A DNA stretch of 32,000 bases from Oscillospiraceae bacterium (GTDB taxonomy: Bacteria; Bacillota; Clostridia; Oscillospirales; Oscillospiraceae). Position numbers and translations under genes: made by a program. The notes below the pieces were generated by a model. The model was not told the DNA's origin. It made no database searches and saw only the letters and a program-made list of their open reading frames with translations. Below, in pieces: positions 13,595 to 30,968 of this stretch; position 1 is the stretch's first letter; each line of letters opens with the position of its first letter. The DNA lies in assembly GCA_017527825.1 (NCBI GenBank), contig JAFXPO010000040.1, positions 19,952 through 51,951 of the forward strand, read 5' to 3'.

Positions 13595-14002
13595 TCAATC
13601 CATCCGCTTCTGGAACTTGAGCGCGTCCTCAAAATCCAGAACGCCGTGGGTACGCATGACGCGCTTGGCGCAGGTGCCCGTCAGCGTTTCCAGCGTTTCC
13701 AGATCCACGTCCGTGTCCGCCGCGAGCAGGTTCGCCATGACCGCGTCCTGCACCGCCAGCTTGAACAGCGTCTTGCCGATGCGGTCGCCGAAGAGCAGGA
13801 GCTTGCCCTCCAGCACGTCCGCCAGCACGCGCGGCAGATACGCGCCCGCGTCACGCGCGTTCAGGTAGCCCGTGTAGAAGCGGATCGCCTTTTCGATGTA
13901 CTCGTTTTGCGTGGAACAGTTGTCGTCTCGGTAGTGGTTTTTCACCTTTTCCCATGCCTCGTTTGTCAGCCAGACGGTGTGTCTGGCTTTTTCGCTTTTC
14001 AT
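13595..14002 (-). CDS. hypothetical protein with N-terminal ribbon-helix-helix-like segment
   Basis: 135 aa, RBS AAGGAGGAA. HTVWLTNEAWEKVKNHY...STQNEYIEKAIRFY has a strand-helix-helix pattern. The call is from pattern only. Confidence 0.55.
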   Translation of the reverse strand: MKSEKARHTVWLTNEAWEKVKNHYRDDNCSTQNEYIEKAIRFYTGYLNARDAGAYLPRVLADVLEGKLLLFGDRIGKTLFKLAVQDAVMANLLAADTDVDLETLETLTGTCAKRVMRTHGVLDFEDALKFQKRMD

Positions 14003-14037
14003 TGCGTAAATTCCTCCTTATTTATCGTTTAGCGTCA

Positions 14038-14077
14038 GGTGAAACGCCGCCGGTACGCGGTCAGGCGGCGTTTCACC
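14038..14077. other. 14-bp perfect inverted repeat in the RHH/HTH intergenic region
   Basis: GGTGAAACGCCGCC (14038-14051), a 12-nt loop, GGCGGCGTTTCACC (14064-14077). There is no U-tract on either strand, so it is not a classical terminator. Confidence 0.6.
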
Positions 14078-14310
14078 GAAGATTGAGCGTCATCGCTGTT
14101 TTCGGCGATCCGAAACAGCGTCACGATGAATCGCCCGAACCGCGCCCCGCACCGCGGGACGCTGTGCCCGCGCTGGCGCTTTAGCGTCGGCGCTTTTTCC
14201 TGCTTCCTCGTCGCACCCCTCCAAAATCGCCGCACACGCCGCTTTGTTCCCTCGACGGTGCTGGGATGCCCTGCGCGCCGAACGATGCGACACAGCGGCA
14301 ACAGCGGCGC

Positions 14311-14742
14311 TCACAGCGGAAGTTCTTCCGGCTCATGCACAGTCCTCGCGGCGACGTATTCGGCGCGGGGAATCTGTCTGCGCGACAGCTTCTTCCGCAT
14401 GTGCGCCGCGTCGAGCTTGGCGAGCTGGCGTTCGTGGAACAGACTAACCGCGCGACGGATCGGCAGGAGCGTGTAGCGCAGGTTGCCGTTCCACTTCAAT
14501 CCGTCCGCCGTGGTGACGGAGGTCGGCTCGATGTCGATTAGCCCCGCCTCGCACAGCTCTGCAACGTACTTCGCCACCGTGCGCGTGCTGCAACCGAACG
14601 TGTCGGCAATGTTCGCGTAGCTCGGCCAGCACTGGTGCGTCTCGGGATCGGTGAGCCGCCGCAGATACGAGTAGATGGCGAGCGCATTTGCGGAGAGGTG
14701 GATTTGGAATATCTCGTTGGGCAGGATCGTGCAGTTGTTCAT
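14311..14742 (-). CDS. winged-helix/HTH DNA-binding protein of the mobile-element module
   Basis: The start is at ATG 14742 (MNNCTILPNEIF...), with GGAGG upstream and an ATGA overlap with the xis-like stop. The HTH-like segment is YANIADTFGCSTRTVAKYVAELCEAGLI. Confidence 0.7.
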   Translation of the reverse strand: MNNCTILPNEIFQIHLSANALAIYSYLRRLTDPETHQCWPSYANIADTFGCSTRTVAKYVAELCEAGLIDIEPTSVTTADGLKWNGNLRYTLLPIRRAVSLFHERQLAKLDAAHMRKKLSRRQIPRAEYVAARTVHEPEELPL

Positions 14743-14951
14743 GTGGAACCGCCTCCGCTCTCGCGTTCGACCCACGCAATGAACTTGTCCCGCGGGACGA
14801 CGATGCGGCTGCCGACCTTGAGCGCCGGGAAGCCCTTCTCGCGCATGAGTTCGTAGCCGCTGGACGGCGACACGCCGAGCACGTCCGCCACCATCCGCGC
14901 GTTGAGAAACAGCGGCAGCTCGTCATAGCTTTGGTACTGGGATTGCTTCAT
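14739..14951 (-). CDS. excisionase-type (HTH_17/MerR-like) DNA-binding protein, 70 aa
   Basis: The start is at ATG 14951, with GAGGAGGAA upstream. LFLNARMVADVLGVSPSSGYELMREKGFPALKVGSRIVVPRDKFIAWVE is the usual excisionase-family pattern. Confidence 0.7.
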   Translation of the reverse strand: MKQSQYQSYDELPLFLNARMVADVLGVSPSSGYELMREKGFPALKVGSRIVVPRDKFIAWVERESGGGST

Positions 14952-14997
14952 GGTTTCCTCCTCGTTGGCGGCGCGGTAGGCCTCCCGCGTTTGCCGC

Positions 14998-15056
14998 TTG
15001 ATTTTTGCGTCCGAATCGGATAGCATGACTGTAGCAGTCCTGCATCGTGATTGCAA
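14998..15056. promoter_or_regulatory. pair of overlapping divergent sigma-A promoters
   Basis: Plus strand: TTGATT (14998-15003), 17 nt, TAGCAT (15021-15026). Minus strand: TTGCAA (15056-15051), 17 nt, TACAGT (15033-15028). The two -10 hexamers are 1 nt apart on opposite strands. Confidence 0.45.
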
Positions 15057-15111
15057 TGGCTTGGGACGACCTTGAGAACATCTCAAAACTCTATCGGTAA
15101 CAGGAGGGCGC

Positions 15112-16158
15112 ATGGATCAGTTTGACGCATTCTCTGTTTTCTTCTGGGATAACAACGTACACGTCGGCGGGCGCACCTACCCCTTGGGACAGGTGACGGT
15201 GGACGTGCTGAACCTCTCGACGGAGACGTTCGACCGCCTCTGTGATAGCGCCGAGGCGTTTGACCGCGCGCTGGATCGTATGCTTGAGCGGCGGGACAGA
15301 CGCATGGCGGAGGAGGTACAGGCGAAGTTCAACGCGGCGTATGACGTCATCCTCACGCTGCCGGTGTTCCGTGACTTGGAGCTGGACGAGGGTGCGCGGA
15401 CGGTGTTCACGGACTTGCGCGACACGCCCGAGGCGTGGGACGAGGCGATGCGAGAGGACACGGCGGGCGGTCAGCTGCTGCGGGCGTTCGCCGCCAAGGT
15501 TTCGTGCCTGCCGGAGCGTCTGAACAACTTTCGCGGGCAGGTCGCGCTGATGCTGGAATACTTTTTCGAGGACTTGCCGCGACGTGACAGCGCGGAGTAC
15601 GGTCGCGCGTTCGACGCCTACTGGCGCGCGATGGTCACGGACGGCACGAAGATTTATCCGTTTCAGGAATTCGAGCAGAGCTTTCCCGCGGAGCTTTCGT
15701 TCGTGCCGATGCGTCATCCTGACCATCCGAACGAGTTTCATGTCGCGGAGCGGGCAAAGTTCGCGGAGCTGCGCTTCTTCCTCTACACCGATTTCTACCG
15801 TGCACTCGCGCACGGCAACGCGCCGCGTCGCTGTCACAACTGCGGGCGGTACTTCCTCCTGACGCGCGGCTACAACACCTGCTACTGCAACAACATCGCG
15901 CCGGGCGAGACGACGCGCACCTGCCGCAAGGTCGGCGCGCACACGAAGGAGCGCCGCGAGCGCGAGGGCGCATCGCCGGTACAGCAGGAGTACAACCGCG
16001 CGTATGGGCGACTGAAGATGCAGCGCAGCCGCCGCAAGAAGGATGCCTCGGAGTACAACCGCGAGGTGGCGCAGGCGCAGGACATCCGCGACGCCTACGC
16101 GCGCGGCGAGCTCGGCGAGGAGGATGCCATCGCGCGGCTGAAGTCGATCGGAGGATAG
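15112..16158 (+). CDS. conserved hypothetical protein with Cys-rich C-terminal (zinc-ribbon-like) region
   Basis: 348 aa, RBS AGGAGG. It has RRCHNCGRYF...CYCNN...TCRK followed by a basic/coiled tail. I recall similar proteins next to integrase/excisionase modules in Clostridia (possibly a DUF family; unverified). Confidence 0.7.
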   Translation: MDQFDAFSVFFWDNNVHVGGRTYPLGQVTVDVLNLSTETFDRLCDSAEAFDRALDRMLERRDRRMAEEVQAKFNAAYDVILTLPVFRDLELDEGARTVFTDLRDTPEAWDEAMREDTAGGQLLRAFAAKVSCLPERLNNFRGQVALMLEYFFEDLPRRDSAEYGRAFDAYWRAMVTDGTKIYPFQEFEQSFPAELSFVPMRHPDHPNEFHVAERAKFAELRFFLYTDFYRALAHGNAPRRCHNCGRYFLLTRGYNTCYCNNIAPGETTRTCRKVGAHTKERREREGASPVQQEYNRAYGRLKMQRSRRKKDASEYNREVAQAQDIRDAYARGELGEEDAIARLKSIGG

Positions 16159-16243: not shown

Positions 16244-16753
16244 TCAGCGCAGCGCCGCCGTCAGAGCGGCTTTCACGCTTGCCTTGATCTTGTCGTAGTT
16301 GTCGCCGGGATGTGCCTCATAGAGCTTTTCATCGCCCGCGTAAATCGTGGGAACATAGTAATAGTCGGTGTAGCGGCTCGCCGCCTCACGCTCGCGCTCC
16401 TCCTCGATCCACTCGACTATGACGGCGCGATAGGCGGGGTTCTCTGCTTGCAGCTCGGCGAGCGCCTGACGCGCCTTGTGGCAGTAGGGACAGTTGTCCA
16501 AGTGCAGGATCGTGAGTTTCTTCTCTCTGCTCATCCACTCCCCGGCGTACAGGAGCATCTTGTCCCGGTTCTGCGCGATCTCGCCGCGCTCCATGCGCTC
16601 ATCCCACACGTCAGGCGAGATCGCCTCGTAAGAGATGTTGATCGCCGCCTGCGGGCAGCCCCACAGCTCCAGCAGCGTTTCGTTGATGCGCTCGGCGACC
16701 TTGCGCACGGTTTCCTCATCCTTTGGGTATCCTTTGATGGCGATGTACGGCAT
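16244..16753 (-). CDS. 4-oxalocrotonate-tautomerase-like domain fused to a glutaredoxin/thioredoxin-fold domain
   Basis: 169 aa, RBS AAGGAGGG. The N-terminus MPYIAIKGYPKDEETVRKVAERINETLLELWGCPQAAINISYEAI has Pro1 plus a beta-alpha-beta tautomerase pattern. The C-terminal part has LTILHLDNCPYCHKARQAL...YYYVPTIY (CPYC redox motif). Confidence 0.75.
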   Translation of the reverse strand: MPYIAIKGYPKDEETVRKVAERINETLLELWGCPQAAINISYEAISPDVWDERMERGEIAQNRDKMLLYAGEWMSREKKLTILHLDNCPYCHKARQALAELQAENPAYRAVIVEWIEEEREREAASRYTDYYYVPTIYAGDEKLYEAHPGDNYDKIKASVKAALTAALR

Positions 16754-16771
16754 GATGTGACCCTCCTTATC

Positions 16772-17650
16772 TCATGTATCGAATAAACTCATCTGTGGAA
16801 ATCGCTCCGGCAGCTCCTGCATAAAGCGGAAGCAGTCCTCCGGCTCGTACAGGATACCGTGCTCCGCGCAGACGCCGCGAAACAGCCGCATGAGTTCTTT
16901 TGCGCGCGGGCTTGGCAGCTCGTAGGCATTCCCGTACCGCTCGATATAGCGTTCCTTCATGCCCGGAAAGTGCCTGTCCAGCGCCGCGTAGAAGTATTCC
17001 CGGCTGCCCTCGCGGAGCGTCACGCCCATGTTGAAGCAGACGATCCCCATCACGCCCACACGGACGCACTCATTCAGGATCGCCGTGACGTTTTCCCCCG
17101 TGTCGTTAATGAACGGCAGAATGGGTGTCAGCCAAACGACCGTCGGGATGCCGCGCTGTCGCATGGCTTCGAGCACCTCGATGCGTCGCTTCGTGTTGCA
17201 GACGTTCGGCTCGAGGATCACGCACAGCGCGTCGTCGTAGGTCGTGAGCGTTATCTCCACCACGCATTTGGCGGTCCGGTTGATCTCATCGAGCAGGTCA
17301 ATGTCGCGGAGAATGCGGTCGGACTTCGTCTGGATCGCCAGACCGAAGCCGTTGTCGCGGATGATTTCAAGACACCTTCGCGTCAGCTGGAGCTTTTCTT
17401 CACAGTGCATGTAGGGATCGGACATGGAGCCAGTGCCGATCATGCACTTTTTTCGCTTGGATTTCAGGGATTTTTCCAGAAGCGCGGGGGCGTTCTGCTT
17501 GACCTCAATGTCCTCGAACGGGTGCGTGAACTGGTAACAGCGGCTCCTGCTGTCGCAGTAGACGCAGCCGTGCGTGCAACCGCGGTATAGGTTCATGCCG
17601 CAGCGCCCGCCGCTCGTGGTGAGGATTCCTTTTGCATCGACAAAGTGCAT
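16772..17650 (-). CDS. radical SAM protein, SplB / 'DNA repair photolyase' (COG1533)-like
   Basis: The start is at ATG 17650 (MHFVDAKGIL...), with GGAGA 8 nt upstream. The CX3CX2C cluster motif is GCTHGCVYCDSR. The family is assigned from memory of COG1533-type sequences. The gene starts 19 nt after the hsdR stop. Confidence 0.8.
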   Translation of the reverse strand: MHFVDAKGILTTSGGRCGMNLYRGCTHGCVYCDSRSRCYQFTHPFEDIEVKQNAPALLEKSLKSKRKKCMIGTGSMSDPYMHCEEKLQLTRRCLEIIRDNGFGLAIQTKSDRILRDIDLLDEINRTAKCVVEITLTTYDDALCVILEPNVCNTKRRIEVLEAMRQRGIPTVVWLTPILPFINDTGENVTAILNECVRVGVMGIVCFNMGVTLREGSREYFYAALDRHFPGMKERYIERYGNAYELPSPRAKELMRLFRGVCAEHGILYEPEDCFRFMQELPERFPQMSLFDT

Positions 17651-17669
17651 GGTGTACGTCTCCGTGCTT

Positions 17670-20600
17670 TCACGCCACCTCCGGGTAGCGCGTGTATACA
17701 TACTCGTATATCTTCTGCCGATAGGTCGAGATGCTGATCTCGTCGTAGCAATCCGGCAGCTCCGCCCATAGCGTGTCGCGGATCAGGGTGTCGATGGTCG
17801 CCTTGGTTTCCTGCTTGTCTGTCCAGTGATCCAACTCGGCGATCTTGGCCTTTACCTTCTGAAGCAGACTCGCCGCGACCTTCTTGATGGTCTTGATGTC
17901 CTGCTTGGAGAGGCTTTCCGAGAACAGCAGATCGTAGATGGACAGCTCCTCGTCGTTGGCAAAGCCCTCGCGGACGTAGCGCTGCTCCTCCTGATCCATG
18001 GAGTTTGCGAGATCCATCAGCTCCATGAACGTCTTTTCGATCGTGGCGCGATCCTGCTCGCTGTTGTAGTCCTCGATGATCTCCTGATACCGCTCATAAT
18101 AATTGATGCGTCCCGGATTCGCCGCGACCATCTTCTCCAGCCGTTCCTGAATCAAGTCCTCCAGATCCTTGAGCACCAGATTCCTCTGCTTTGCCCGTGC
18201 GAACTCCGCGCGCAAGAGATCAAAGTCGATTTGGCTGATATCGAAGCGACGGCTCTCTGCCAACCCTTCCTGCGGTTGCTCGACTTGGACGTATTCGCTG
18301 ATGATTTGATTGATCTGTACCATCAGATCTATGTTGCTTGCGTGCTTGCGCTTCCTGCAAAGCTGTGCGTCGATTTCAACGATGGCGTTGCACCGTTTAC
18401 GGACGGACGGCTCAATATCCTCGCGGTCAGCGTATTTCAGGAGACGCTGCAGCTCGTTTGCGAACGTCTGGAACTCCTTCCGCTCCGGCAGGCTGGCAGA
18501 CACGGCGTTCGCCGCTGTTTGCAGCAGATCGACCTTTGCAAAACCGCTTGCGTCTACAAGTGTTTGGAGGGCAAAACCCCGCTCCGCGAGAAACGCCTCT
18601 GACGCTGCGACGGTTTGCAGTATCCGCGCGACCAGCTCCTCCTTATCGACGGTCGGATCGACGCCAGCGCCGCCCTCGATGTTTGCGGTATAGTCCGCCA
18701 GCGCCTTTCTCAGCGCCTTGACGATGCCGACATAGTCTACGATCAGGCCGTTGCTCTTGCCCTCCGCGACGCGGTTGGCGCGGGCGATGGTCTGCATCAG
18801 CGTGTGCGCCTTGAGCGGCTTGTCCAGATAGAGACAGGAAAGGCACTTGACGTCAAAGCCGGTCAGCCACATGGCGCAGACGAACACCACGCGGAGCGGG
18901 TTTTCGGCGTCCTTGAACTCCTTATCCAGCTCTCGCTTTTCCATCTTCTCGCGGTGCGTTTTGATATCCAGCCCCCATTTCTGGAACGTCTGGATCTCAT
19001 TCTGCTCCTGACTGATGACGACCGCCATCTCCGTTTCACGCATCCATGCGAGCTTGCGCTCCAACTCCTTGACTTCTTGCTGCTCCACCGTCCTGATCTG
19101 CGCTTCGAGCCTTTTGATTTCCTCCGCCCAGTACTTCTGCACAAGGTCATACATCCGCACGCAGGACACTTTATTGAGGCATACGAACATCGCCTTGCCG
19201 CTCGTCCACAGGTCGGAGTAGTGCCCCACAAAGTCGCGCGCGATGGAGTCAAGGCGCGGCTCCGCCGTCAGCAGATGGATCTCCTTGGCGAACTCGCGTT
19301 CCAGCTTGTCCTGCTGATCGACGTCCAAATCAGCCTGCTCGATGGCGTCGAGAATGCGGTCGGTGATCTCCGGGTTGTGCAGGTCCTTGATCTTGTCGCC
19401 ACGGTTTTCGTAATACAGCGGCACCGTCGCGCCGTCGTCCACGGCGCGCTTGAAGTCATAGATGGATATGTAGCCGCCGAAGGTGCGCTCGGTGATGTTG
19501 TCGTTGGAGAGCAGCGGCGTACCGGTAAAGCCGATGCGTGATGCGGTCGGCAGCAGGGAAACCATGTTGTTGGCGTAAATACCGTATTGGCTGCGGTGCG
19601 CCTCGTCCGACATAATAATAACGTCGTGGTCGGGATAGATCGGCGCGGCGTCCGGCTGGTTGAACTTCTGGATCAGCGTGAAGATGAAGCTGGGATTGCC
19701 GCGCAGCTTGTCGATTAGATCGTCGCCGCTCTGCGCGATGAACTGCCGCGCCTTCGTCTTTCCGAGCAGGCCGCAGTTCTCGAAGGTGTCGCTGATCTGC
19801 TTGTTCAGCTCGTCGCGGTCAGTCAGGATCACGATGGTCGGCGAACCCGCGAACTTGCGGCGGATCTTCTGCGCCAGAAACACCATCGAATAGCTCTTGC
19901 CGCTGCCCTGCGTATGCCAGAACACGCCCAGCTTGCCGTCGCGCAGCTTGCGTTCGGCGTATGCCTTGACCGCCTCGTTCACGCCGAGATACTGGTGGTT
20001 GCGGGCGAGTATCTTTGCCGTGCGCCCGCCGGAGTGGTCGAACAGGATGAAGTTTTCCAGCAGGTCGAGGAAGTTTTCCTTTTTGCAGATGCCGCGCAGC
20101 ATGGTTTCCAGCGCGACGCTGCCGGCGTCCTTCTCGTTCAGGCGCTTCCACTCGTGGAAGAACTCGTACTTGCTGCCCAGCGTGCCGACCTTTGCCTCCA
20201 CGCCGTTGGAGAGGATGAGAAAGGCGTTGTAATAAAAGAGCTGCGGGATGGTGTCGAGGTAGTCGGTGTAGTTGTCCGTGTAGGCGTTCTGCACGTCCAC
20301 CGTGGTCTTTTTCAGCTCTACAAACAGCAGGGGGATACCGTTGACAAAGCCGACAATATCCGTGCGGCGGCGGTACAGATCGCCATGAATTTTCAACTCC
20401 TTGATGGCGAGGAAACGGTTGTTTTCGGGGTGCCGGAAGTCGATCACCACGGCGCGCTTTTCCTCTGTTTTGCCGCCCGGACGCTTGACCGTGACGGGGA
20501 TGCCGTCGCGGATCAGGTTGTACTTTTCCTCATTGATTTGCAGCAGCGACGCGGTGGAGAGGCGGCTTTCCATGGTACGCTGCGCCTCGTCGAGCTGCGC

Positions 20601-20807
20601 GGGCGTGATCCACGGATTCAGCCGTTGGAGTGCGGCTCGAAAGTCCCGCGTGAGCAGAATCTCCTGATAGCTCCTGCGCCCAAAGGAGCCGTCCGCGCCA
20701 AGCACCTCGGTGTTGTAGGCATAGGCGACGTCCCAACCCAGCTCGTCGCGGAGCAGGTCGCCCGCCGCGCCTTGGATGAGGATGTTTTCGGAGTATTCGT
20801 AGGACAT
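17670..20807 (-). CDS. hsdR: type I restriction endonuclease, R subunit
   Basis: 1045 aa. The N-terminal PD-(D/E)xK-type nuclease segment is TDIVGFVNGIPLLFVELKK. Helicase motif I is HTQGSGKS and motif II is DEAHRSQ. It has the long helical C-terminal region typical of HsdR. Confidence 0.95.
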   Translation of the reverse strand: MSYEYSENILIQGAAGDLLRDELGWDVAYAYNTEVLGADGSFGRRSYQEILLTRDFRAALQRLNPWITPAQLDEAQRTMESRLSTASLLQINEEKYNLIRDGIPVTVKRPGGKTEEKRAVVIDFRHPENNRFLAIKELKIHGDLYRRRTDIVGFVNGIPLLFVELKKTTVDVQNAYTDNYTDYLDTIPQLFYYNAFLILSNGVEAKVGTLGSKYEFFHEWKRLNEKDAGSVALETMLRGICKKENFLDLLENFILFDHSGGRTAKILARNHQYLGVNEAVKAYAERKLRDGKLGVFWHTQGSGKSYSMVFLAQKIRRKFAGSPTIVILTDRDELNKQISDTFENCGLLGKTKARQFIAQSGDDLIDKLRGNPSFIFTLIQKFNQPDAAPIYPDHDVIIMSDEAHRSQYGIYANNMVSLLPTASRIGFTGTPLLSNDNITERTFGGYISIYDFKRAVDDGATVPLYYENRGDKIKDLHNPEITDRILDAIEQADLDVDQQDKLEREFAKEIHLLTAEPRLDSIARDFVGHYSDLWTSGKAMFVCLNKVSCVRMYDLVQKYWAEEIKRLEAQIRTVEQQEVKELERKLAWMRETEMAVVISQEQNEIQTFQKWGLDIKTHREKMEKRELDKEFKDAENPLRVVFVCAMWLTGFDVKCLSCLYLDKPLKAHTLMQTIARANRVAEGKSNGLIVDYVGIVKALRKALADYTANIEGGAGVDPTVDKEELVARILQTVAASEAFLAERGFALQTLVDASGFAKVDLLQTAANAVSASLPERKEFQTFANELQRLLKYADREDIEPSVRKRCNAIVEIDAQLCRKRKHASNIDLMVQINQIISEYVQVEQPQEGLAESRRFDISQIDFDLLRAEFARAKQRNLVLKDLEDLIQERLEKMVAANPGRINYYERYQEIIEDYNSEQDRATIEKTFMELMDLANSMDQEEQRYVREGFANDEELSIYDLLFSESLSKQDIKTIKKVAASLLQKVKAKIAELDHWTDKQETKATIDTLIRDTLWAELPDCYDEISISTYRQKIYEYVYTRYPEVA

Positions 20808-20824
20808 GGTTGGTCACCTCGTTA

Positions 20825-21913
20825 TCAGATTAAATCCGGAATACGAGGATCACATCGTTTTGCGTTTGTTTGTGCTAATACACGTCCAACTTGTGTAATG
20901 GAAAATCCGCGAGGAAGAGAATCCCACCAAGTTCCAATTTTACTAAGGGAATCAAAAGAATTCCACATTTCCTTAAATTTTGTATTAACCTGATCCATCA
21001 GTTTGGAATCCTTCGAGTACATATTCCACACTTGTCTTACTGCTTGTTTATGATCTTCACTTAGTGGCACTTTTTCTGCTCCTTTATTGAAAAGCAAATT
21101 ATCAATGCTATTATACTGACATATTGCCAAACGAACATAATTATCCAAACAATCATTGGGAATTAAACAACTCGAATTTATATGGGCTGCATTAAGAATA
21201 TCAATTGCTTTTCTATATTCCTCCGAATACTTCTCAATTCCAACACAAATATAGCCATCTAGAGTTGATGAATAAAAATCAAAGATTTGCTTCATGGTGA
21301 TAAAAGAATCCAGCCTGATCGCACCAAGGACGTCTAAATGGTCGAGCCACTCAGTTCCAGATGGTAGTTCGTGGTATAAAAGCTTATTAAACAATTCGTT
21401 CAGTACATGAAGACCTTCTAAAGTATTTCCTGTTATTGGGACAAACTGCATAATCGCATGTGCGACTGTTAAGGCACACAGCGCATCATTGTCTATTTCT
21501 CCTACTATGCTGATTGCCCTGCCAATTCCAGCTCGGTTTTTCCTACCGTCTCCTTTTTGTACATGGCATACGAGCAATTCTGATAACAGTGAATAATCAT
21601 CTTCACGTTCAGTCGAAGCCGCTGTTCTCTGGGCATTTTTTAGTGCAAATTGAAATGTCGGATCTGCAAATGCTGGAAGCATTTCTTCCACACGTTTTAC
21701 CCGATTCAGCAATTCATTTTCAAATTGATTTATCCGGCTTCTTGCGGTGTTTGTGGCTTCATCGGTGTATTCTTGAAGAATTTGAGGGAGCAATTCATTG
21801 CATATTTCACGAGCTCGCTGCTCGGTAATACCATTATTGACTATTGTCAGGTTTTCTATCTGCGTTTGTGTGGCACCATTGCCAGCCTTTTGCATTTGCC
21901 CTTCATTTGTCAT
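20825..21913 (-). CDS. hypothetical 362-aa protein embedded in the type I R-M operon (no recognisable motif)
   Basis: AT-rich ORF. Its ATG lies inside the last 11 nt of the upstream small ORF, and hsdR starts 17 nt after its stop. It looks predominantly helical by eye. I find no Walker A, HEPN Rx4-6H or HTH. Confidence 0.75.
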   Translation of the reverse strand: MTNEGQMQKAGNGATQTQIENLTIVNNGITEQRAREICNELLPQILQEYTDEATNTARSRINQFENELLNRVKRVEEMLPAFADPTFQFALKNAQRTAASTEREDDYSLLSELLVCHVQKGDGRKNRAGIGRAISIVGEIDNDALCALTVAHAIMQFVPITGNTLEGLHVLNELFNKLLYHELPSGTEWLDHLDVLGAIRLDSFITMKQIFDFYSSTLDGYICVGIEKYSEEYRKAIDILNAAHINSSCLIPNDCLDNYVRLAICQYNSIDNLLFNKGAEKVPLSEDHKQAVRQVWNMYSKDSKLMDQVNTKFKEMWNSFDSLSKIGTWWDSLPRGFSITQVGRVLAQTNAKRCDPRIPDLI

Positions 21914-22115
21914 TCTTTTTCTCCTTGTTGTCGCTTGTAATAGTCACATTTCCAATTTGGGTCAATTTTGATTGATTTCCTGCGGTTTGAGACTGTTTAT
22001 TATGATTCTTTATTCCAAATCTGTATCCAGTTATACCACCGATTATCAGGCCAATAAGCAAACTAATTATTTCCGTTCCAATTCCATCGAAAACCCATTC
22101 ATACCACATTTTCAT
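21903..22115 (-). CDS. small single-pass membrane protein (70 aa) embedded in the type I R-M operon
   Basis: Its ATG overlaps the hsdS stop (ATGA). The hydrophobic helix is GIGTEIISLLIGLIIGGITGY, followed by a polar, Lys-rich tail. The tail shares a peptide motif with the N-terminus of the next gene. Confidence 0.6.
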   Translation of the reverse strand: MKMWYEWVFDGIGTEIISLLIGLIIGGITGYRFGIKNHNKQSQTAGNQSKLTQIGNVTITSDNKEKKNDK

Positions 22116-23323
22116 ACCTCCAATTCTCCGCTCATTAGCTTGGGCAGCAACCGATCTCGGGCTTGCTGCAAATGAGCAATTATCTTTGTTAATGTTCGCT
22201 GTTCTTTTATTATAGGGTCAATAATGGTTGTAAATCTCAGCAGCAATTCATTGTTTGGAACAATAATCTCCATATCTCGAAATGCTCGTTTCGATATTTC
22301 CAAAAACGTTGATCCTGTTGCTTTTCCCTTAATTTCATCTACACGCTCCATCAGATTGAAGAGCAAATAGTATCGCATTTCCGCACAACAAGGTACGCAA
22401 GAAATAAACCCCTGATTTGTACAAACTTCAAATTCGCATAAAGCAAAATATCCAATGCTGGCACGGCTTGTCATAAGAATCGTATATGGCGGCAACAGTT
22501 TTGCAGAGCTATTGTTCAAGCCGTCAATGGTTATTTTCTTTTCAGAATCCAGCAAAATCAAGCTATTCGCTTTTGTGAGATCAGTCGGCGTTACCCATCG
22601 TATAGTGCCATCGGAATAGTACTCGGACTTGGAAGTTGACGGTGTACCGCCGCCTATGGTATCACAAATATCGGAAATTGTTTCTTTCCTCCACCCCTCC
22701 GGCACACCGTCCATGATGGGCGTATTCTCATGTCCAGGAAAGCGGAGATCGACGAACCACTCCTTATACAGCCGCTGCGCCGCTTCCTCCAACAGCTTGA
22801 TTTGCTTTTGGTTGTTCTCGATGAACTCGTCGTAGGCGGAGAGAATATCTGTTACCCTGCGTTGTTTATCAAGAGGCGGAAGAGCAATTACTATATTGCG
22901 GAGAGCAGACAAACTAATCGTCCGCTGTGCAGCACCAACTGCCGCCGCATCAGCCTTTGCATAGAAGTCTTTGCTCAGCATGGTATAGTACAAAAACGCG
23001 GAAAGCACTTTTTCGTTCGGACGTAGTATAGCTATATGTCGCTGAAAGGAAAAAGGCTTGTTCTCTTTGATAAGTACAGGAATCCCGAAAGAACCTACTA
23101 CCGAATACAAGACATCCCCAATTTGCGCTTTTCTTTTGGAATCCAACGCATCATAGTATTCCTGCGAAACATACATCGTATTGCTGAAATCAAACTGATT
23201 AAACGATGTGATGTTCGAAATCGTTACAAATGGAACTCCGTTTTCTGCTTTCGGCGGCGGTTGGTGATCTCCGTCGGCGATTGATTTGCAACAATCAGCA
23301 AGCCGTACTTTTTCCCACTTCAT
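22112..23323 (-). CDS. hsdS: type I R-M specificity subunit
   Basis: The start is at ATG 23323, overlapping the hsdM stop (ATGA). It has two target-recognition halves separated by the conserved helical spacer LPPLDKQRRVTDILSAYDEFIENNQKQIKLLEEAAQRLYKEWFVDLRFPGHE, and a C-terminal LQQARDRLLPKLMSGELEV. The ORF-track start at 23527 is a read-through into hsdM. Confidence 0.9.
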   Translation of the reverse strand: MKWEKVRLADCCKSIADGDHQPPPKAENGVPFVTISNITSFNQFDFSNTMYVSQEYYDALDSKRKAQIGDVLYSVVGSFGIPVLIKENKPFSFQRHIAILRPNEKVLSAFLYYTMLSKDFYAKADAAAVGAAQRTISLSALRNIVIALPPLDKQRRVTDILSAYDEFIENNQKQIKLLEEAAQRLYKEWFVDLRFPGHENTPIMDGVPEGWRKETISDICDTIGGGTPSTSKSEYYSDGTIRWVTPTDLTKANSLILLDSEKKITIDGLNNSSAKLLPPYTILMTSRASIGYFALCEFEVCTNQGFISCVPCCAEMRYYLLFNLMERVDEIKGKATGSTFLEISKRAFRDMEIIVPNNELLLRFTTIIDPIIKEQRTLTKIIAHLQQARDRLLPKLMSGELEV

Positions 23324-25338
23324 AGCCCCATCTCCTTCATATTCTTCGAGATGGTTTCCATCAGCGAATTGCTCTCCGCCTGCAAGGTCAAAAGCTCCGC
23401 GTGTATCTCCTTCATGCGCGCGGCGAAATCCACGCCGTCGTCCTCGGTCGGCGCGACGCCGACATACGCGCCCGGCGTGAGCGACCAGCCCTTGTCCTCG
23501 ATCTCCGCGCGCGTGGCAACTTTGCACAAGCCGGGAATATCGGCGTATGCGCCAACCCCAAACTTCTCATAGAGCCAAGCTGCTTCGGCAATCGTTTTGA
23601 GGCAATCGCTGATCTCTTCGACAAATGTATCAATAGTGCCGTTCAAGCTCTTTGTAAACCATTTGCCGCGCGCAGGTCCTTTCCCAGCATAGCTCTCCAC
23701 AAACGCCTTAACCTCGTGGTTTAGCTTGTTTTCCTCTATATGTGCTGCAAACTTCGCCGCCGCCGCTTTTACCTCGCGTTGATATTCGCCCAATGCATTT
23801 TTGATTGATTCACACTCGGAAAGACTAATTCCGTCTTCCACCCTGCGCCTGAGCGCAAAGGCTTTTTCGTATGCCTCCGTATAGAATGGCGGTAGCATGA
23901 GATGTGTCAGAGATTCTGCTTGAAAATCGACAATCGAGCAGATGGAGCGAATAATTGCGCCCTCATACTCCTTAAGCAAGCCCCGGTACTTCTCCGCCTC
24001 GCCGCGATAGAGCCAGACGATAGCGTTCAGGTTCTTGAGCTGCCACTCGCTCCACTCGTTGAGCGTGCGGTCGACCACGGTATAATAGTTGCGGGCGTCG
24101 ATGAACAGTACCTTGTCCCGCAGCTCCTCGCGCTTGCCCTTGTCGAAGAACCAGAGGGAACAAGGCAGGCTCTTGGTGTAGAAGAAGTTATTGCCGACGC
24201 TGACCATCACGTCCACATGACCGCTCTCCACCAGCTTTTGGCGGATGTCCTTGTCCTTGCCCTGGCTGTCGGTGGCGGAGGACGCCATGACAAAGCCCGC
24301 GCGGCCTTTTTCGTTCAGATAGGCGTAAAAATACGAAATCCAGAGATAGTTGGCATTTCCGAACTCCTTCTTCGCGTTGATGGCGGGCAAGCCGAAGGGC
24401 AGGCGTCCGGCGCTCTGCGCTGTCTCGGCGTTGACCTTGTCCACGTTAAAGGGCGGATTCGCCATCACATAGTCACATTCGCCCGCGAGGTTGTGGGCGT
24501 CGTGGTAGAAGGTGTTCGCCTCGTCGCCGGACTTGATGACGCCGGTCAGCCCATGCACCGCCATGTTCATCAGGCAGAGCTGGGCGTTGTACTCGACCTT
24601 TTCCTGCCCGTAAAAGGTCATGGCGCTGTTGGCGGACATGCCCGCCTGATTGACAAAATCGCCGGTCTGGACAAACATACCGCCGCTGCCGCAGGCGGGG
24701 TCGAGCAGCACGCCGCCCTTGGGCTCCAGCACGTTGACGATCATCTTGACGAGGGACTTGGGCGTGAAGAATACGCCGTCGTCCTGCGCGATGTTCTTGG
24801 CGAATTTGTTGAGGAAGTATTCATAGATGCGCCCAATCACGTCGCCGCCGACCTCGTCGAGCGCGTTATTGTTGAAGATACGCAGCAGCTTATCCAGCAG
24901 CGCGTCCGGGAACATAGTGTAGTCTTTGGGCAGTACACCGTGGAGCTGCTCGCTTTGCGCCTCGATCAGTTCCATGGCGTTGTTGACCACCTCGCCGAGG
25001 CTGTTCATGACATGGCCGGACGCATTTTTGATATTTGCGGAGGGTATATTGGCTGGCAGGTTGAGCAAAAAGTCATACTGCGCCTCTTTTGGGAGAAACA
25101 GCGCGCTCTTGGAGGCAAAGTCGCTCGCCTCGACGGGCAGAACGCGCCCGCCGCGCGTGGGGCGGTCTTTCGTGATCTCCCGCTCCACCAGCTTGAACCG
25201 GCTGTAGGCGTAGCGGAGGAAAATCAGCCCCAGCACAGGCATACAGTATTGGTTCGAGGTCAGCTTGGATTCCGCGCGGAGCAAGTCCGCGGATTCCCAC
25301 AAATCGCTTTCAAGCTTTCGGATGCTGCGATTGTCCAT
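23320..25338 (-). CDS. hsdM: type I R-M N6-adenine DNA methyltransferase subunit
   Basis: 672 aa. The HsdM N-terminal pattern is LWESADLLRA. The SAM motif is LLDPACGSGGMF and the catalytic motif is NPPFN. Confidence 0.95.
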   Translation of the reverse strand: MDNRSIRKLESDLWESADLLRAESKLTSNQYCMPVLGLIFLRYAYSRFKLVEREITKDRPTRGGRVLPVEASDFASKSALFLPKEAQYDFLLNLPANIPSANIKNASGHVMNSLGEVVNNAMELIEAQSEQLHGVLPKDYTMFPDALLDKLLRIFNNNALDEVGGDVIGRIYEYFLNKFAKNIAQDDGVFFTPKSLVKMIVNVLEPKGGVLLDPACGSGGMFVQTGDFVNQAGMSANSAMTFYGQEKVEYNAQLCLMNMAVHGLTGVIKSGDEANTFYHDAHNLAGECDYVMANPPFNVDKVNAETAQSAGRLPFGLPAINAKKEFGNANYLWISYFYAYLNEKGRAGFVMASSATDSQGKDKDIRQKLVESGHVDVMVSVGNNFFYTKSLPCSLWFFDKGKREELRDKVLFIDARNYYTVVDRTLNEWSEWQLKNLNAIVWLYRGEAEKYRGLLKEYEGAIIRSICSIVDFQAESLTHLMLPPFYTEAYEKAFALRRRVEDGISLSECESIKNALGEYQREVKAAAAKFAAHIEENKLNHEVKAFVESYAGKGPARGKWFTKSLNGTIDTFVEEISDCLKTIAEAAWLYEKFGVGAYADIPGLCKVATRAEIEDKGWSLTPGAYVGVAPTEDDGVDFAARMKEIHAELLTLQAESNSLMETISKNMKEMGL

Positions 25339-25408
25339 ATCGTGTACCTTCCTGTGGGCGAGAATACCCTTGCATTTTCTGACACCATTCTACAATGGTT
25401 TCTATATG

Positions 25409-27664
25409 TCATTCAAATTGAATCTCTTCTTGGTTTGCGTTATAGAGTTCAAGTTTCTGCTGAATATCAAGTTCGTTTACGATCCAACCCCTTAACGTAC
25501 AAGCTCTGATAAAATCCTGAATGCGGTTAATACCGTTGATTTCCCGCAAAGTGACGACCGCGCCGAAATTCAGACCATGCATTGTGCGGGAAGCTAACCG
25601 CTCCTTTGATGTAATGGCTATTCCCCACAGGCGTTCTTCGTAGGCTTTCGCCGGACGGTTACCACGTTTCAGCACCTTGGAAATAAACTTGGTATTCTCC
25701 CACTTTCGAAAGTCCTTGCGTGACTGTCTCTCGTCAACGTGGGCAATCTCTTCGTCCTGAACATTATCGTTGATATCGTCTATGGTGCCATTGGTTTTAA
25801 CACGCCCGAACTGCAGAGATAATTCTCTGCTTGTGTAATCAACGCCCTGAGACCTTGTGCATTCGGGGAAGTAGCAAAGTGTTGCACGAGCGATATAAGG
25901 GTACTTTCCATCCTCGTCTTTGGGAATCGGTATGGCATAGTTGGTTGTTTTATAAGATTTGGAGGTGCCATAGACTATAAAACGAATCTCATCACTATCG
26001 GTGGAAAGCAGCTTTTCTATATTAATTGGGACAACACCATAACCAAGAGTGTTTCTGTGAAGATATGTAGAAGCCTTGTATTCCCATCCTGCGGCGGAAT
26101 CAATGAGGAGAGCTTTCGCAACCTCACGCGGGAGGCCCATAATATCGATTAGATAGCATAGCTTTCTGCTGATCCATGGCGCGGCAAAAGAGGTTCCGTA
26201 GACGTCCTCTCTGCCGTATGGCGAGTACGCAACGATTCTTTCATCATAATCGCCGCCATAATAGGAAATGTCCGGCTTGCTAAAGAAAGACAGCACCGTG
26301 CCTTCGCGTGAGTATGAGGCTGGTATGCCACTACGTTTCACGGAATTGACAACGATGGCATTTAAGGAATCTGCCGGAGAACCGATTCTCAGCCGTGGAG
26401 AGCGATTTTGCTGTTCATCATTCGTGCCGGATATGACAAATAAAACGTTTTTCTGGGATTGCAGCTCGTCTAAAACTGAGGCATCAAAAGAGATAAAGTT
26501 TTTGGAAACCTCGTCCTCGGTGCCAAGAGAGAGATTCCAGACATGAATATCCGGATTCCTCGAAACGATTTCTTTGATTTTCCTAACAAGCCGAGGAACG
26601 GATATTTTGTCGCCGCAAACGCCAAAGTGGCGTACACGAAAGCGTCCGCATCCGTCGTCAAGCCACGGATTCAGGGTGGGACCATCCACGATGATCGAAG
26701 ACACCTCCGTCCCGTGGTTTTTCCAATCGTCTCGAACCATCGATTGTTCTATATCGGAAAGATAGTCTATATTCTCGACCCAATCGCGAAAGTAAACGCT
26801 TTCGTCAAAAAGTGTATCTATCACACCGATGACAGGCTCATTGGCTGGAGACGGAATGTCGATTTCTTCCCGTGTCGGTGCACCTGTGATCTGGTCGATT
26901 CTGATTTGTGAAAAATCCGTTGAGATCATTGAGATCATGTAAGGAACATGGCTCTCAAGAAAGTTATAAAAATCCTTCGTAACAGAAATGGTATCTTTCC
27001 CGTAAGACGAATAGTGGTATCGTGCATCGTCGACCTTGAGCTTTTCCATTAGTTTTTCCAGCGGTAATTCTGTCTGGTAAAACGTAAGCAAGAAAGTATC
27101 GCTCTCAGGAACAGCCGAAATGCCCGGTACTGAAAAAGAATCAATTACAGAGCAGTCAACAATGATATGGCGCAGTTGGGCTTTGCTTAGTTCGAACCCA
27201 GTATAGTCAATCTCGCAGTCCGGTTCGTTGAAGTTTTTGTGCGTTGCTTTGCCACTTAGCTGATCTTTGAGAAACTTCTGTGCAATTCTTAGATTATGAA
27301 TTGTTCGTACAATCGTTGCAGCATCCACATAATATGTGATAATATGATTTTCCTCGCCAGCAGGTGCATCGGAAAACCTCGCTCCGACAACAATGTCGTT
27401 TGTTTGTACTGACCCTGTTGGCTTGAGCACTTCCCTGACCCTGTTGGACTTTGCAATGATATCATTGTAATTCACATCGATCAGTATCTTGTCGAGCATT
27501 TTGGGAATTCCCCTATAATAACGCAATACGGCGTTCAGGTCATCAACCAGAGCATCAATTTTCTCGGACGTCGTATGATCCCGCACTCTCAGATTCCGAG
27601 CTCCAGGACGTTGCCTGTTCTTCTCACTAGCAAATCGAAGCTTTATCTGTAATAAATGGTTCAT
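25409..27664 (-). CDS. ietS: S8 (subtilisin-like) serine peptidase with a roughly 270-aa unknown N-terminal region; IetS-like
   Basis: 751 aa. The catalytic triad is in canonical order: VIGVIDTLFD (Asp), HGTEVSSII (His), GTSFAAPWIS (Ser), with oxyanion Asn in VWNLSLG. Its ATG overlaps the upstream AAA ATPase stop (ATGA). The symbol is given on architecture only (AAA ATPase plus S8 protease pair). Confidence 0.7.
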   Translation of the reverse strand: MNHLLQIKLRFASEKNRQRPGARNLRVRDHTTSEKIDALVDDLNAVLRYYRGIPKMLDKILIDVNYNDIIAKSNRVREVLKPTGSVQTNDIVVGARFSDAPAGEENHIITYYVDAATIVRTIHNLRIAQKFLKDQLSGKATHKNFNEPDCEIDYTGFELSKAQLRHIIVDCSVIDSFSVPGISAVPESDTFLLTFYQTELPLEKLMEKLKVDDARYHYSSYGKDTISVTKDFYNFLESHVPYMISMISTDFSQIRIDQITGAPTREEIDIPSPANEPVIGVIDTLFDESVYFRDWVENIDYLSDIEQSMVRDDWKNHGTEVSSIIVDGPTLNPWLDDGCGRFRVRHFGVCGDKISVPRLVRKIKEIVSRNPDIHVWNLSLGTEDEVSKNFISFDASVLDELQSQKNVLFVISGTNDEQQNRSPRLRIGSPADSLNAIVVNSVKRSGIPASYSREGTVLSFFSKPDISYYGGDYDERIVAYSPYGREDVYGTSFAAPWISRKLCYLIDIMGLPREVAKALLIDSAAGWEYKASTYLHRNTLGYGVVPINIEKLLSTDSDEIRFIVYGTSKSYKTTNYAIPIPKDEDGKYPYIARATLCYFPECTRSQGVDYTSRELSLQFGRVKTNGTIDDINDNVQDEEIAHVDERQSRKDFRKWENTKFISKVLKRGNRPAKAYEERLWGIAITSKERLASRTMHGLNFGAVVTLREINGINRIQDFIRACTLRGWIVNELDIQQKLELYNANQEEIQFE

Positions 27665-28701
27665 TTTGTATCCTTCAACTTTCTTGAAACACTACTTTTA
27701 GGAATCCTCGTGAGGATTTCTATTTCTCTTGTCGTATATCCCAGCTCGTTAAGTTTTTGGATATCAACAGTTTCAGGATTGCCATTCAGCGCAAGATATA
27801 TTTTTCTTAAATAATCGAATTCGCTTGTTTCATCGCTGAAAGCAATAGAAGTCTTGATTACTTGCTTTAAATCACCCGGATAGGGGATGTTGCCGAGGTT
27901 GCTGAGAATTTTGTGAAAAAGCCTCAAGTCCTGTTTTGATTTAACGGATTTTCTTAGATTTGACACAAGAATAGAATCGGCAATATCAATCAAATCCTCT
28001 CGAGAGTAACGGTCAAAAGATATGGCTGCGTCAAATCTCCGAATCAATGCTTTGTCCAGACTAGGAAAAAGATTGGTAGTTGCAATGATTGTTATCTTCT
28101 CATTGAGCGCATCAAGTTCTTTCAGGAACAAAGAGGTTACCCGTCCCATTTCGCGCAAATCATTTTGGTTAATTCTGTCCAGAACCAACGCATCAATTTC
28201 ATCAAATACCACAAGTACCTTGCTGAATGGCAGATGATTGATTTCGTCAAAAAGCGATGCAACATTCTTTGCTGTTTCGCCAAGTCTGCTGTCAATGAGT
28301 TGTTCAAAATCAACGGACAGGATATCGCGGTTTAAAATCCTTGCGATTTGATATGCTGATTCTGTCTTACCACTGCCAGGTGCTCCATAAAACAGAAATT
28401 TGGACAATCCAGCATTGTTGCTGATTGACCGTGTGATTCCAACAATATCTTCCTCGATAATGTTGGGAAGCAAGAGGGGCTGCGCAGAGTATTCTTTCTT
28501 TTTTAGATATCTCAAACTTTTGTAGCTTGCCTGCGGTACATAGAAATTCGCATTGGAAATCAGCTCCATAAGGTATTCTGCTACGGAAGTATCGCCGCTT
28601 TCATCAAATTCTTTTGCGATTTTTGCTACCTCGGACGCAAATGCTTCCTCATTGTTTTCAACATGATATCGAATCAAATTCACCAAATTTTGTTTTTTCA
28701 T
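27661..28701 (-). CDS. ietA: AAA-family ATPase with C-terminal HTH-like tail; IetA-like
   Basis: The start is at ATG 28701 (MKKQNLVNLIRYH...). Walker A is FYGAPGSGKTE and Walker B is LVVFDEIDAL. The arginine-finger region is ALIRRFD. The C-terminal LGYTTREIEILTRIPKSSVSRKLK looks like an HTH. The symbol is from architecture only. Confidence 0.7.
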   Translation of the reverse strand: MKKQNLVNLIRYHVENNEEAFASEVAKIAKEFDESGDTSVAEYLMELISNANFYVPQASYKSLRYLKKKEYSAQPLLLPNIIEEDIVGITRSISNNAGLSKFLFYGAPGSGKTESAYQIARILNRDILSVDFEQLIDSRLGETAKNVASLFDEINHLPFSKVLVVFDEIDALVLDRINQNDLREMGRVTSLFLKELDALNEKITIIATTNLFPSLDKALIRRFDAAISFDRYSREDLIDIADSILVSNLRKSVKSKQDLRLFHKILSNLGNIPYPGDLKQVIKTSIAFSDETSEFDYLRKIYLALNGNPETVDIQKLNELGYTTREIEILTRIPKSSVSRKLKDTK

Positions 28702-28904: not shown

Positions 28905-28935
28905 ATCCTCGACCAATATGCAGGAGGTGAGGGCG

Positions 28936-29823: not shown

Positions 29824-29837
29824 GGGAGGTATCGCTT

Positions 29838-30422: not shown

Positions 30423-30432
30423 GAGGCGCGAT

Positions 30433-30966: not shown

Positions 30967-30968
30967 CG

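Follow-up and report, generated by a model that had tools for sequence, protein, structure and literature searches.

A motif-sharing membrane protein and Vpar_1526-family gene pair nested in a type I restriction-modification operon, probably an undescribed anti-phage module

Why should two genes that encode no restriction-modification (R-M) subunit lie between hsdS and hsdR of a type I R-M operon? The question is raised by a locus in a metagenome-assembled genome (MAG) of an Oscillospiraceae bacterium (GenBank assembly GCA_017527825.1, contig JAFXPO010000040.1, positions 19,952 to 51,951), a stretch of 32,000 nucleotides called the window from here on. In it a small open reading frame (ORF) for a membrane protein of 68 or 70 residues and an ORF for a 362-residue protein are inserted into the operon; we call the two together the cassette. 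The classic example of a suicide defence that backs up a type I R-M system from within its operon is PrrC, the anticodon nuclease of EcoprrI: one polypeptide combines an ABC-type ATPase head with a tRNA nuclease domain, and EcoprrI physically keeps it latent. The cassette occupies the same operon slot as PrrC, between hsdS and hsdR, and is likewise co-transcribed with the R-M genes; however, it contains none of the PrrC domains, consists of two genes and often occurs without R-M genes. We suggest that the cassette is probably an undescribed anti-phage module. Two results, a matched and co-varying motif on both proteins and an obligate pairing of the two genes across phyla, turn this hypothetical pair into a specific mechanistic hypothesis.

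The two genes pair obligately across phyla. We collected 134 loci from genomes, metagenomes and an exact-protein look-up, representing 86 distinct large proteins, and a gene for a small transmembrane (TM) partner stood directly upstream of the large gene in 82 of the 86 distinct loci, mostly with an overlap of 11 or 14 nt. The four exceptions are a fusion of both proteins (L009), a contig edge (L078), a partner displaced by an insertion (L131) and a divergent partner missed by the filter (L014). Paired loci span at least six bacterial phyla (Firmicutes, Bacteroidota, Fibrobacter, Planctomycetota, Actinobacteria and Gastranaerophilales) and include a contig from a Methanobrevibacter MAG, and a reverse search started from the small protein returned to genes of the Vpar_1526 family, to which the large protein belongs. 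In at least nine proteins of 390–462 residues (P0141, P0142, P0178, P0211, P0249, P0264, P0234, P0190 and L009) the partners are joined in one chain, in the order TM helix, motif or motifs, large domain, with two or three motif copies retained. These fusions are Rosetta-stone evidence that both products work together and, with the shared motif, they strengthen an idea already present in the initial annotation, that of a membrane-anchored protein acting with a soluble partner.

The motif in question is an element of ~20 residues, QxQKAGxxSxQxQ, which occurs both in the small protein's tail and at the N-terminus of its large partner. Small partners carry it in the form QxQKAGxx(S/A)xQxQ(I/V)G, once or, in most homologs, twice, and large proteins carry a single copy of the form QxQKAGxxSxQxQ(A/I/V)Gx(I/V)x(I/V)NxG. 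The N-terminal segment of the large protein holds the most conserved positions of the family (Q8, G11, Q18 and G28, each at 90% or more among 122 homologs), yet the monomer model leaves it without structure, at a predicted local distance difference test (pLDDT) score of 51–57; top conservation in a segment of predicted disorder is typical of an interaction motif. When a hidden Markov model (HMM) was built only from the 27 N-terminal residues of large proteins, it recognised the motif in 61 of the 73 distinct small partners with scores that none of 7,300 shuffled, composition-matched decoys attained. Within ~1.3 Mb of fetched loci, 250 of 252 motif matches fell inside these pairs, and the remaining two lay in a second tandem large gene and in a displaced partner. 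A matched motif at the C-terminus of the upstream product and the N-terminus of the downstream product of adjacent genes is the arrangement of an amyloid-signalling pair. Tandem large genes were seen on the Methanobrevibacter contig (L019, 439–2875), where two of them follow one small partner and the second copy is also motif-bearing; this contig is only 3.1 kb long and its archaeal assignment is uncertain.

The two motif copies also change together. In all five lineages with a non-canonical large N-terminus, the small tail shows the same departure: L136 (small tail NNKGENSGVIMGVNTGDV, large N-terminus KNTGDNSGTIMGENSGNV), L137 (NINIKTGKKSTNITTESG and KINIETGDDSTNITGKTV), L014 (NNTIAGRDAYVVKGNGNKIG and QDVIAGQDANVIKGNENSIT), L139 (KQKVKGNNNSQSIGHV and EQKIDGDENFQQSVGTQ) and L141 (QNISSGDNCNNIQFGEN and QEISSGANSNNYQGEN). 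The variant types are GxNSGxIMG in L136, INIxTGxxSTNIT in L137 and ISSGxNxNNxQ in L141. For the three variants that were scored (L136, L137 and L014), identity in cis, within the pair, was 10–11 of 19 positions; in trans, against canonical motifs, it was 0.7–3.7 of 19. Over 37 pairs, the observed cis mean was not reached in any of 100,000 permutations, and the test was convincing only after the divergent lineages had joined the canonical pairs. Concerted change of motif copies on two proteins argues, at the level of sequence, for selection on homotypic matching.

With regard to known motif families, a phi-Q-phi-G core (phi-Q-phi-G-x-x-N) ends the motif in 54 of 73 small partners and recalls the G-phi-Q-phi-G core of RHIM, PP and BASS3, with Q or E in place of the preceding G. 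The Pfam models for RHIM, PP and HET-s were not among the best 25 of the 34 families matched by 19 small partners (E ≤ 10), nor were they among the Pfam matches listed for the large proteins. When the window pair was concatenated and modelled with AlphaFold, each motif copy was given, at low confidence, two short strands that fall on corresponding residues of the two proteins (QTA/KLTQI and QKA/TQTQI), with the TM helix and the globular body unchanged.

The small protein has one hydrophobic segment, at residues 8–26 (mean Kyte-Doolittle value over 19 residues, KD19, of 1.86), and AlphaFold draws a helix at residues 3–23 of the 68-residue form, which bears out the single clear TM helix reported at the outset. 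The pattern W[IV]FDGIGT...GGxxGY is conserved across phyla in the small partners. Since basic residues come after the helix, the tail is probably cytoplasmic by the positive-inside rule. None of 844 homologs has a Pfam domain, and the small protein itself gave no Pfam match beyond weak TM-type ones. A search for a HeLo, Hell, Bell or Babybell cell-death domain in the small protein found none; one TM helix of ~22 residues is all that precedes the motif, and it leaves no room for a globular domain. In PADLOC v2.0.0, the only match on the side of the small protein was a weak one to the N-terminal ~60 residues of PDC-M43A, seen in three of 19 small partners (E-values of 5e-3 to 8e-4), and the supplements of Payne et al. 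(10.1101/2024.01.29.577857) hold no annotation for the PDC-M43 families.

The large protein, which with its partner had been called unassignable, does have a family. It passes the curated cut-off of NCBIfam NF045477 (LPO_1073/Vpar_1526) with 101 bits against a threshold of 45 (E 8.3e-29; residues 28–353 aligned to profile positions 1–245 of 257), and PF28206 (Vpar_1526) has a precomputed Pfam match on the exact protein and on all 120 listed homologs. A RefSeq homolog, WP_175494688.1, bears the LPO_1073/Vpar_1526 family name. Both are named families without an assigned function, and an exhaustive profile search returned 2,092 clusters at 50% identity with E ≤ 1e-3, 462 of them with E ≤ 1e-30. 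These two families were the only confident matches. No other Pfam family was matched by the large protein or consistently among 122 homologs, and NACHT, NB-ARC, TPR, GreA and PIN matches were absent from the 122 family members. Abi_2 (PF07751) and Abi_alpha (DUF4393, PF14337), which the initial annotation had singled out for comparison, gave no match at E ≤ 1 for the window protein or at E ≤ 0.1 in the 122 homologs. PADLOC v2.0.0 gave zero matches to the large protein and scattered, chance-level matches among the homologs. Regular-expression searches of the large protein agreed with the earlier reading, in that neither a Walker A nor a HEPN-type Rx4-6H nor a simple PD-(D/E)xK motif turned up. 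With no Walker A, no Pfam or PADLOC match to PrrC and no Abi_2 match, the pair is as unlike PrrC and Abi_2 as had been claimed, and no characterised family with a non-defence role was matched confidently. In PHROGs, the two proteins gave nothing of use beyond a match of the large one to phrog_19542 (E 1e-8), to which no function is assigned; the best match in a sequence profile search of the PDB (E 0.024, M protein) was taken as chance.

The AlphaFold2 model of the large protein, made from a 122-sequence alignment, is confident (pLDDT 93; predicted template modelling score 0.88) and consists of a globular body, a helical bundle followed by an alpha/beta lobe, behind an unstructured N-terminus. 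Foldseek searches with this model found nothing at E ≤ 0.001 in PDB or BFVD. The best PDB match was SipD (E 0.04, TM-score 0.12), and weak ClyA and helical-bundle matches were dismissed as generic; the best BFVD match, an unnamed phage protein, reached an E of 0.024 over 164 columns, above the E ≤ 0.001 mark. Residues conserved down to ~32% identity are mostly structural and form no obvious catalytic set. In the literature on LPO_1073, Vpar_1526, PF28206 and NF045477 we found only a proteomics table, in which mass spectrometry places Vpar_1526 of Veillonella parvula in the whole-cell, the outer-membrane and the surface-exposed fraction (PMC5491611). This envelope detection is odd for a protein without a signal peptide, and could reflect membrane tethering or co-sedimenting assemblies.

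The contexts in which the cassette is found point towards defence. In about 29–30 of 48 lineages defined by clustering at 90% identity (~60%, in a set biased toward close relatives; about half in a more diverse genome set), hsdS lies directly upstream of the small gene and hsdR 10–25 nt downstream of the large gene. TIR, Abi, nSTAND, KAP or McrBC genes adjoin the cassette in most of the remaining lineages. Known defence genes adjoin the cassette in 10 of the 12 lineages with precomputed annotations, and many of these have no R-M genes at all. The R-M-free contexts include an SLFN_AlbA_2 gene with an integrase; two TIR proteins with Band_7, YhcG and a resolvase; a KAP NTPase with PIN; ThsB_TIR with a caspase, Abi_alpha and NERD (L139); and an nSTAND NTPase. 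Elsewhere, neighbours also include type I R-M genes, Abi_2, SoFic, McrBC and BrxL, and Abi_2 and Abi_alpha occur as separate neighbour genes in L137 and L139. The expectation that homologs would recur in hsd operons or defence islands in company with the small ORF was thus borne out. Of the proposal that the pair forms a second line of defence at the R-M locus, the defence-module part is supported by these neighbourhoods, whereas no specific support was seen for guarding by the R-M complex; as R-M-free loci carry the cassette too, it is probably an autonomous second line of defence and not a dedicated R-M guard. An extreme case of nesting is found in L137 and L138, whose R-M operon has five elements embedded between hsdM and hsdR (Abi_2, TIR_2, the small/large pair, SoFic and AAA_14/DUF4143); the order in L137 is hsdM, Abi_2, hsdS, TIR, small, large, SoFic, AAA_14, hsdR.

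Base composition and divergence set the cassette apart from the genes around it. Its GC content in the window is 0.34–0.39, versus 0.57–0.58 for hsdM and hsdR, and in every R-M-embedded locus (the window at 20825–23323, L001, L038, L047, L061, L073 and others) hsdS and the cassette form a low-GC core (0.32–0.44), even where hsdM and hsdR are at 0.53–0.60. The GC boundary is abrupt at the hsdR start of the window. Between operons whose HsdM and HsdR share 63–84% identity, the cassette proteins are 42–56% identical. These sequence comparisons suggest that the central segment is exchanged repeatedly, or evolves fast, between conserved flanks. The family is rare in mobile collections, with one partial phage match, no plasmid match and five IMG/VR contigs, and with such rarity in phage and plasmid collections a phage origin or a role as an anti-defence decoy was set aside.

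In the window itself, hsdM, hsdS, the small ORF, the 362-residue ORF and hsdR are five tightly coupled, co-oriented genes of the minus strand (Table 1). N6_Mtase, Methylase_S and HSDR_N with ResIII occur in this one co-oriented unit, which makes it a type I R-M operon, and the coordinates and the Pfam matches of the flanking genes confirm that two ORFs foreign to R-M lie inside it. Compared with their counterparts in related operons, hsdM is 65–78% identical (GC 0.565) and hsdR 72–82% (GC 0.58); hsdS has a GC of 0.44, below both. The true start of hsdS is MKWEK, at residue 69 of the long ORF, and its C-terminus reads ...GAATTGGAGGTATGA. In one otherwise identical public contig (L028, 8592–9802) hsdS is split into ORFs of 74 and 289 residues; the specificity gene there has been inactivated or is a variant, or else the contig is misassembled.

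The junctions are mostly as the initial annotation described them. The first ATG of the small ORF (22115) does overlap the hsdS stop as ATGA (in GTATGA); as the start codon it is the less likely choice. A second in-frame ATG at 22109 stands 7 nt after a GGAGG, gene callers use it for a version of 68 residues, and several homologs begin at its equivalent (MWYEW...), so the 68-residue form is more likely to be made; its coupling to hsdS remains tight. The 362-residue ORF begins 11 nt inside the small ORF, with an AAGGAG 7 nt upstream, and the hsdR ATG follows its stop by 17 nt, with a GAGGTG 7 nt upstream, both as first reported. No terminator-like site was found on the minus strand across 17500–25600, and a promoter-like site was seen only upstream of hsdM, in keeping with the claim that the junctions leave no room for a promoter or terminator. 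Both cassette ORFs are real genes, with exact NCBI records (MBR3561678.1 and MBR3561679.1, hypothetical proteins of an Oscillospiraceae MAG) and hundreds of homologs. Translational coupling was preferred to a programmed frameshift joining the two ORFs: relative to the small ORF the large one lies in the +1 frame, in which GAGAAAAAG is no proper -1 slippery heptamer, and overlaps or gaps range from -38 to +37 nt among loci. Long ORFs of 258–535 codons also lie antisense to hsdM and hsdR (plus strand, 23902–25509, 19914–20993 and 17826–19541); they are most likely GC-driven artefacts of these high-GC genes.

Table 1. Features of the cassette, its operon and the surrounding island, in coordinates of the window
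Feature	Position	Strand	Description	Basis
hsdM	23320..25338	-	672 aa; methyltransferase, first operon gene	Precomputed Pfam HsdM_N and N6_Mtase on identical contig
Promoter-like site upstream of hsdM	25387..25416	-	Candidate operon promoter	Consensus scan, 9/12 matches; pattern match only
hsdS	22112..23323	-	403 aa; specificity subunit; start overlaps hsdM stop by 4 nt	Pfam Methylase_S
Small partner gene	21903..22115 (70 aa) or 21903..22109 (68 aa)	-	Predicted single-pass membrane protein with motif-bearing tail	Junctions, ribosome-binding site, homologs
TM helix of small protein	22026..22094	-	Residues ~8-30 of 70-aa form, VFDGIGTEIISLLIGLIIGGITG; glycine-zipper-like GxxxGGxxG	KD19, AlphaFold
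Motif copy, small-protein tail	21936..22001	-	Residues 39-60, KQSQTAGNQSKLTQIGNVTITS	HMM from large N-termini, 20.7 bits
Large partner gene	20825..21913	-	362 aa; LPO_1073/Vpar_1526 family	NF045477, PF28206
Motif copy, large-protein N-terminus	21824..21901	-	Residues 5-30, GQMQKAGNGATQTQIENLTIVNNGIT	Conservation, match to small tail
Globular body of large protein	20852..21823	-	Residues 31-354: helical bundle 31-178, alpha/beta lobe 188-354	AlphaFold
hsdR	17670..20807	-	1045 aa; restriction subunit	Pfam HSDR_N, ResIII, SWI2_SNF2, T1R_D3-like
S8 subtilase gene	25409-27664	-	751 aa; directly upstream of hsdM	PADLOC IetS, E 1e-60
AAA ATPase gene	27661-28569	-	Overlaps subtilase gene	PADLOC IetA, E 5e-35
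Divergent four-gene block	28918-31235	+	Fic, 'Cyclase' family, LOG/LDcluster4-like, small GIY-YIG	Pfam, PADLOC
Radical-SAM gene, then glutaredoxin-like gene	16244-17650	-	Radical-SAM start ~19 nt past hsdR stop
Two overlapping tyrosine integrase genes	~10896-13468	-	Within flank 10896-16158, which also holds two helix-turn-helix (HTH) genes and DUF6076

Beyond the operon, the window as a whole is a defence island, with two tyrosine integrases. In order, the island holds GIY-YIG, LOG-like, cyclase, Fic and IetA/IetS genes, the R-M operon with the cassette, radical-SAM and glutaredoxin-like genes, DUF6076, two HTH genes and the two integrases. The Gao 'Iet' defence system, as recognised from its sequence matches, adjoins the R-M operon, and the Fic protein strongly matches the PADLOC candidate PDC-S04 (E 5e-108). 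The radical-SAM and glutaredoxin-like genes had no PADLOC matches and may be co-transcribed passengers of the operon. With the integrases, the HTH genes and DUF6076 at its flank, the defence cluster as a whole seems to be carried by an integrative element.

How might such a cassette work? Our leading, if tentative, explanation is that it is an autonomous, mobile abortive-infection module of two components, which in the window is embedded in a type I R-M operon. The 362-residue Vpar_1526-family protein would be a cytoplasmic sensor, the small protein would be a single-pass glycine-zipper membrane effector, or at least a membrane anchor, and the shared Q/G/N-rich motif of ~20 residues would couple the cytoplasmic tail of the one to the extreme N-terminus of the other. 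A phage cue, possibly linked to a failure of restriction, would alter the state or the oligomerisation of the large protein and so expose its N-terminal motif, which could then pair homotypically with that of the small protein in a beta-sheet, possibly as an amyloid-like template. The TM helices of the small protein would cluster as a result, the membrane would be permeabilised, and the infected cell would die or arrest.

In its gene and motif architecture the cassette resembles amyloid-signalling pairs, outside the described families. A small upstream protein with a TM helix and a C-terminal motif, an overlapping large gene that begins with the motif, repeats in a 2:1 ratio and matched motifs that are lineage-specific together make up the signature of such a pair. 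The closest bacterial comparison is Bab/Agp (BASS11), an abortive-infection system of Escherichia coli ECOR25, in which the 109-residue Bab has an N-terminal hydrophobic helix and a C-terminal motif (10.1101/2024.11.07.622273). During infection by phage T5 the sensor Agp converts the matching motif of Bab, and Bab moves to the membrane and kills the cell (10.1101/2024.11.07.622273). Both systems have adjacent, co-oriented genes, with a small upstream protein (109 residues there, 68–96 here) made of a helix and then a motif of ~20–25 residues, and a large downstream protein with the same motif at its extreme N-terminus; in both the motif is rich in G, N and Q and the genes lie in defence islands. 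However, Bab has a four-helix Babybell domain of ~80 residues that cups helix 1 and stays soluble until activated, whereas the small protein of the cassette is a bare TM helix that is probably inserted constitutively. The large partner of the cassette is of the Vpar_1526 family, with an unmatched fold, and not a TGP protein like Agp, and the motif of the cassette is apparently unrelated to the BASS11 sequence. A further difference is that the cassette family includes single-chain fusions that retain the motif.

Likewise, in the Bell/NLR BASS pairs of filamentous bacteria and in fungal HET-S/NWD2, the effector ends and the sensor begins with a matched motif, and HET-s has two repeats to the one of NWD2 (10.1101/2020.01.06.895854). 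These pairs share with the cassette, on the roles proposed for its proteins, an effector gene followed by a sensor gene, often overlapping, and motif families that are lineage-specific and matched within the pair; the two repeats on most small partners and the one on the large protein parallel HET-s and NWD2. On the other hand, the large protein of the cassette is not an NLR or STAND NTPase (no Walker A), the small protein has no Bell or HeLo domain, and Pfam RHIM, PP and HET-s are absent from the matches listed for the partners. The hosts of the cassette also differ from those of BASS pairs, being mostly unicellular gut and rumen Firmicutes and Bacteroidota and not Actinobacteria or Cyanobacteria. 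That QxQKAGxxSxQxQ represents a new family of amyloid-like signalling motif with a RHIM-like phi-Q-phi-G end, which couples a non-NLR Vpar_1526 sensor of unseen fold to a minimal one-helix glycine-zipper effector, is a more speculative proposal and one that we would not regard as likely.

Nesting within a type I R-M operon has precedents among defence systems. TgvAB is a two-gene cassette embedded in a type I R-M operon that acts as an independent, GmrSD-like type IV restriction defence (PMC11411939). Under the principle of 'guilt-by-embedding', Payne et al. predicted in 2024 that the PDC systems embedded in type I R-M operons are defence systems (10.1101/2024.01.29.577857), and genes so embedded have been demonstrated as such (PMC11411939; 10.1101/2024.01.29.577857). 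The cassette, with two genes within a type I R-M operon, fits this principle; it differs in that TgvAB is GmrSD-like, while the Vpar_1526 protein matches no PADLOC v2.0.0 model.

Several points weigh against reading the cassette as a switchable defence module. The family is absent from PADLOC v2.0.0 although its authors mined genes embedded in type I R-M operons, and the function proposed for the module is a computational prediction for every family member. Neither a sensor nor an NTPase nor an enzymatic domain could be recognised in the large protein, nor any conserved set of catalytic-looking residues, so the assignment of sensor and effector is a guess. As for the motif, its first half is very polar (QxQKAGDNSxQxQ), no RHIM, PP or HET-s model is among the Pfam matches listed, and the strands predicted for it in the concatenated AlphaFold model are of low confidence (pLDDT 50–66). 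Among canonical pairs alone the excess of cis over trans identity is small (8.79 versus 8.26 of 19), and gene conversion between neighbouring motif copies could give concerted variation without selection for pairing. Fusions hold the motif copies in one chain, which fits a permanent tether as well as a switch, and three independent lineages lie inside polysaccharide biosynthesis clusters.

The first of the alternatives is such a tether: a static membrane anchor without templating, in which the small protein only holds the large one at the membrane's inner face, by motif-motif or motif-domain binding, and the large protein is the active partner, for example as a superinfection-exclusion or injection-blocking factor or as a membrane-proximal sensor-effector. 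The natural fusions, which are permanent and yet keep two or three motif copies, accord with this, as do the presence of Vpar_1526 in envelope fractions of V. parvula (PMC5491611) and the fact that the large protein is the more conserved and by far the larger partner. We nevertheless consider a simple tether unlikely, as it leaves unexplained both the two motif copies on most small partners versus one on the large protein and the standing of the motif as the most conserved part of a predicted-disordered segment, and no effector-like domain or set of catalytic residues was seen in the large protein.

A role outside defence appears improbable. The pair could be an accessory to envelope or polysaccharide synthesis, as its co-directional position inside exopolysaccharide or glycosyltransferase clusters in three lineages and the detection of one family member in envelope fractions might indicate, or an accessory of type I R-M that might, for instance, bring the enzyme to the membrane, with which its very frequent co-transcription with hsdR would agree. 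Against both stand the known defence genes next to the cassette in 10 of the 12 annotated lineages, many of them R-M-free, and polysaccharide loci are themselves variable and horizontally exchanged. Least probable of all, and very unlikely in our estimation, is an addiction or toxin-antitoxin module for the stable upkeep of the R-M operon or a mobile element, with the small protein as membrane toxin (Hok- or TisB-like in principle) and the large protein as antidote: a short glycine-zipper TM peptide and a mobile, compositionally foreign cassette on integrative elements would suit it, but a single chain that unites toxin and antitoxin does not sit easily with toxin-antitoxin logic, both proteins are made in roughly equal amounts given the order and coupling of their genes, there is no evident DNA-binding autoregulator, and we know of no precedent for a 362-residue antitoxin with a matched motif.

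If the cassette is indeed a defence system, as we tentatively favour, it adds a large family outside PADLOC v2.0.0, with more than 2,000 clusters at 50% identity in many gut and rumen phyla, and it would explain one recurrent passenger of type I R-M operons. The confident but unmatched predicted fold makes the large protein a target for structure determination and for a search for the trigger. The matched, co-varying motif provides a concrete handle on the generality of amyloid-type signalling in bacterial immunity, which has so far been shown in bacteria only for Bab/Agp. Should the motif prove to be a new signalling family, templated-assembly signalling would reach beyond the NLR/Bell pairs of multicellular bacteria and Bab/Agp, and prion-like signalling would be a widespread defence among unicellular gut and rumen bacteria of the Firmicutes, the Bacteroidota and further phyla, often placed within type I R-M operons as a second line.

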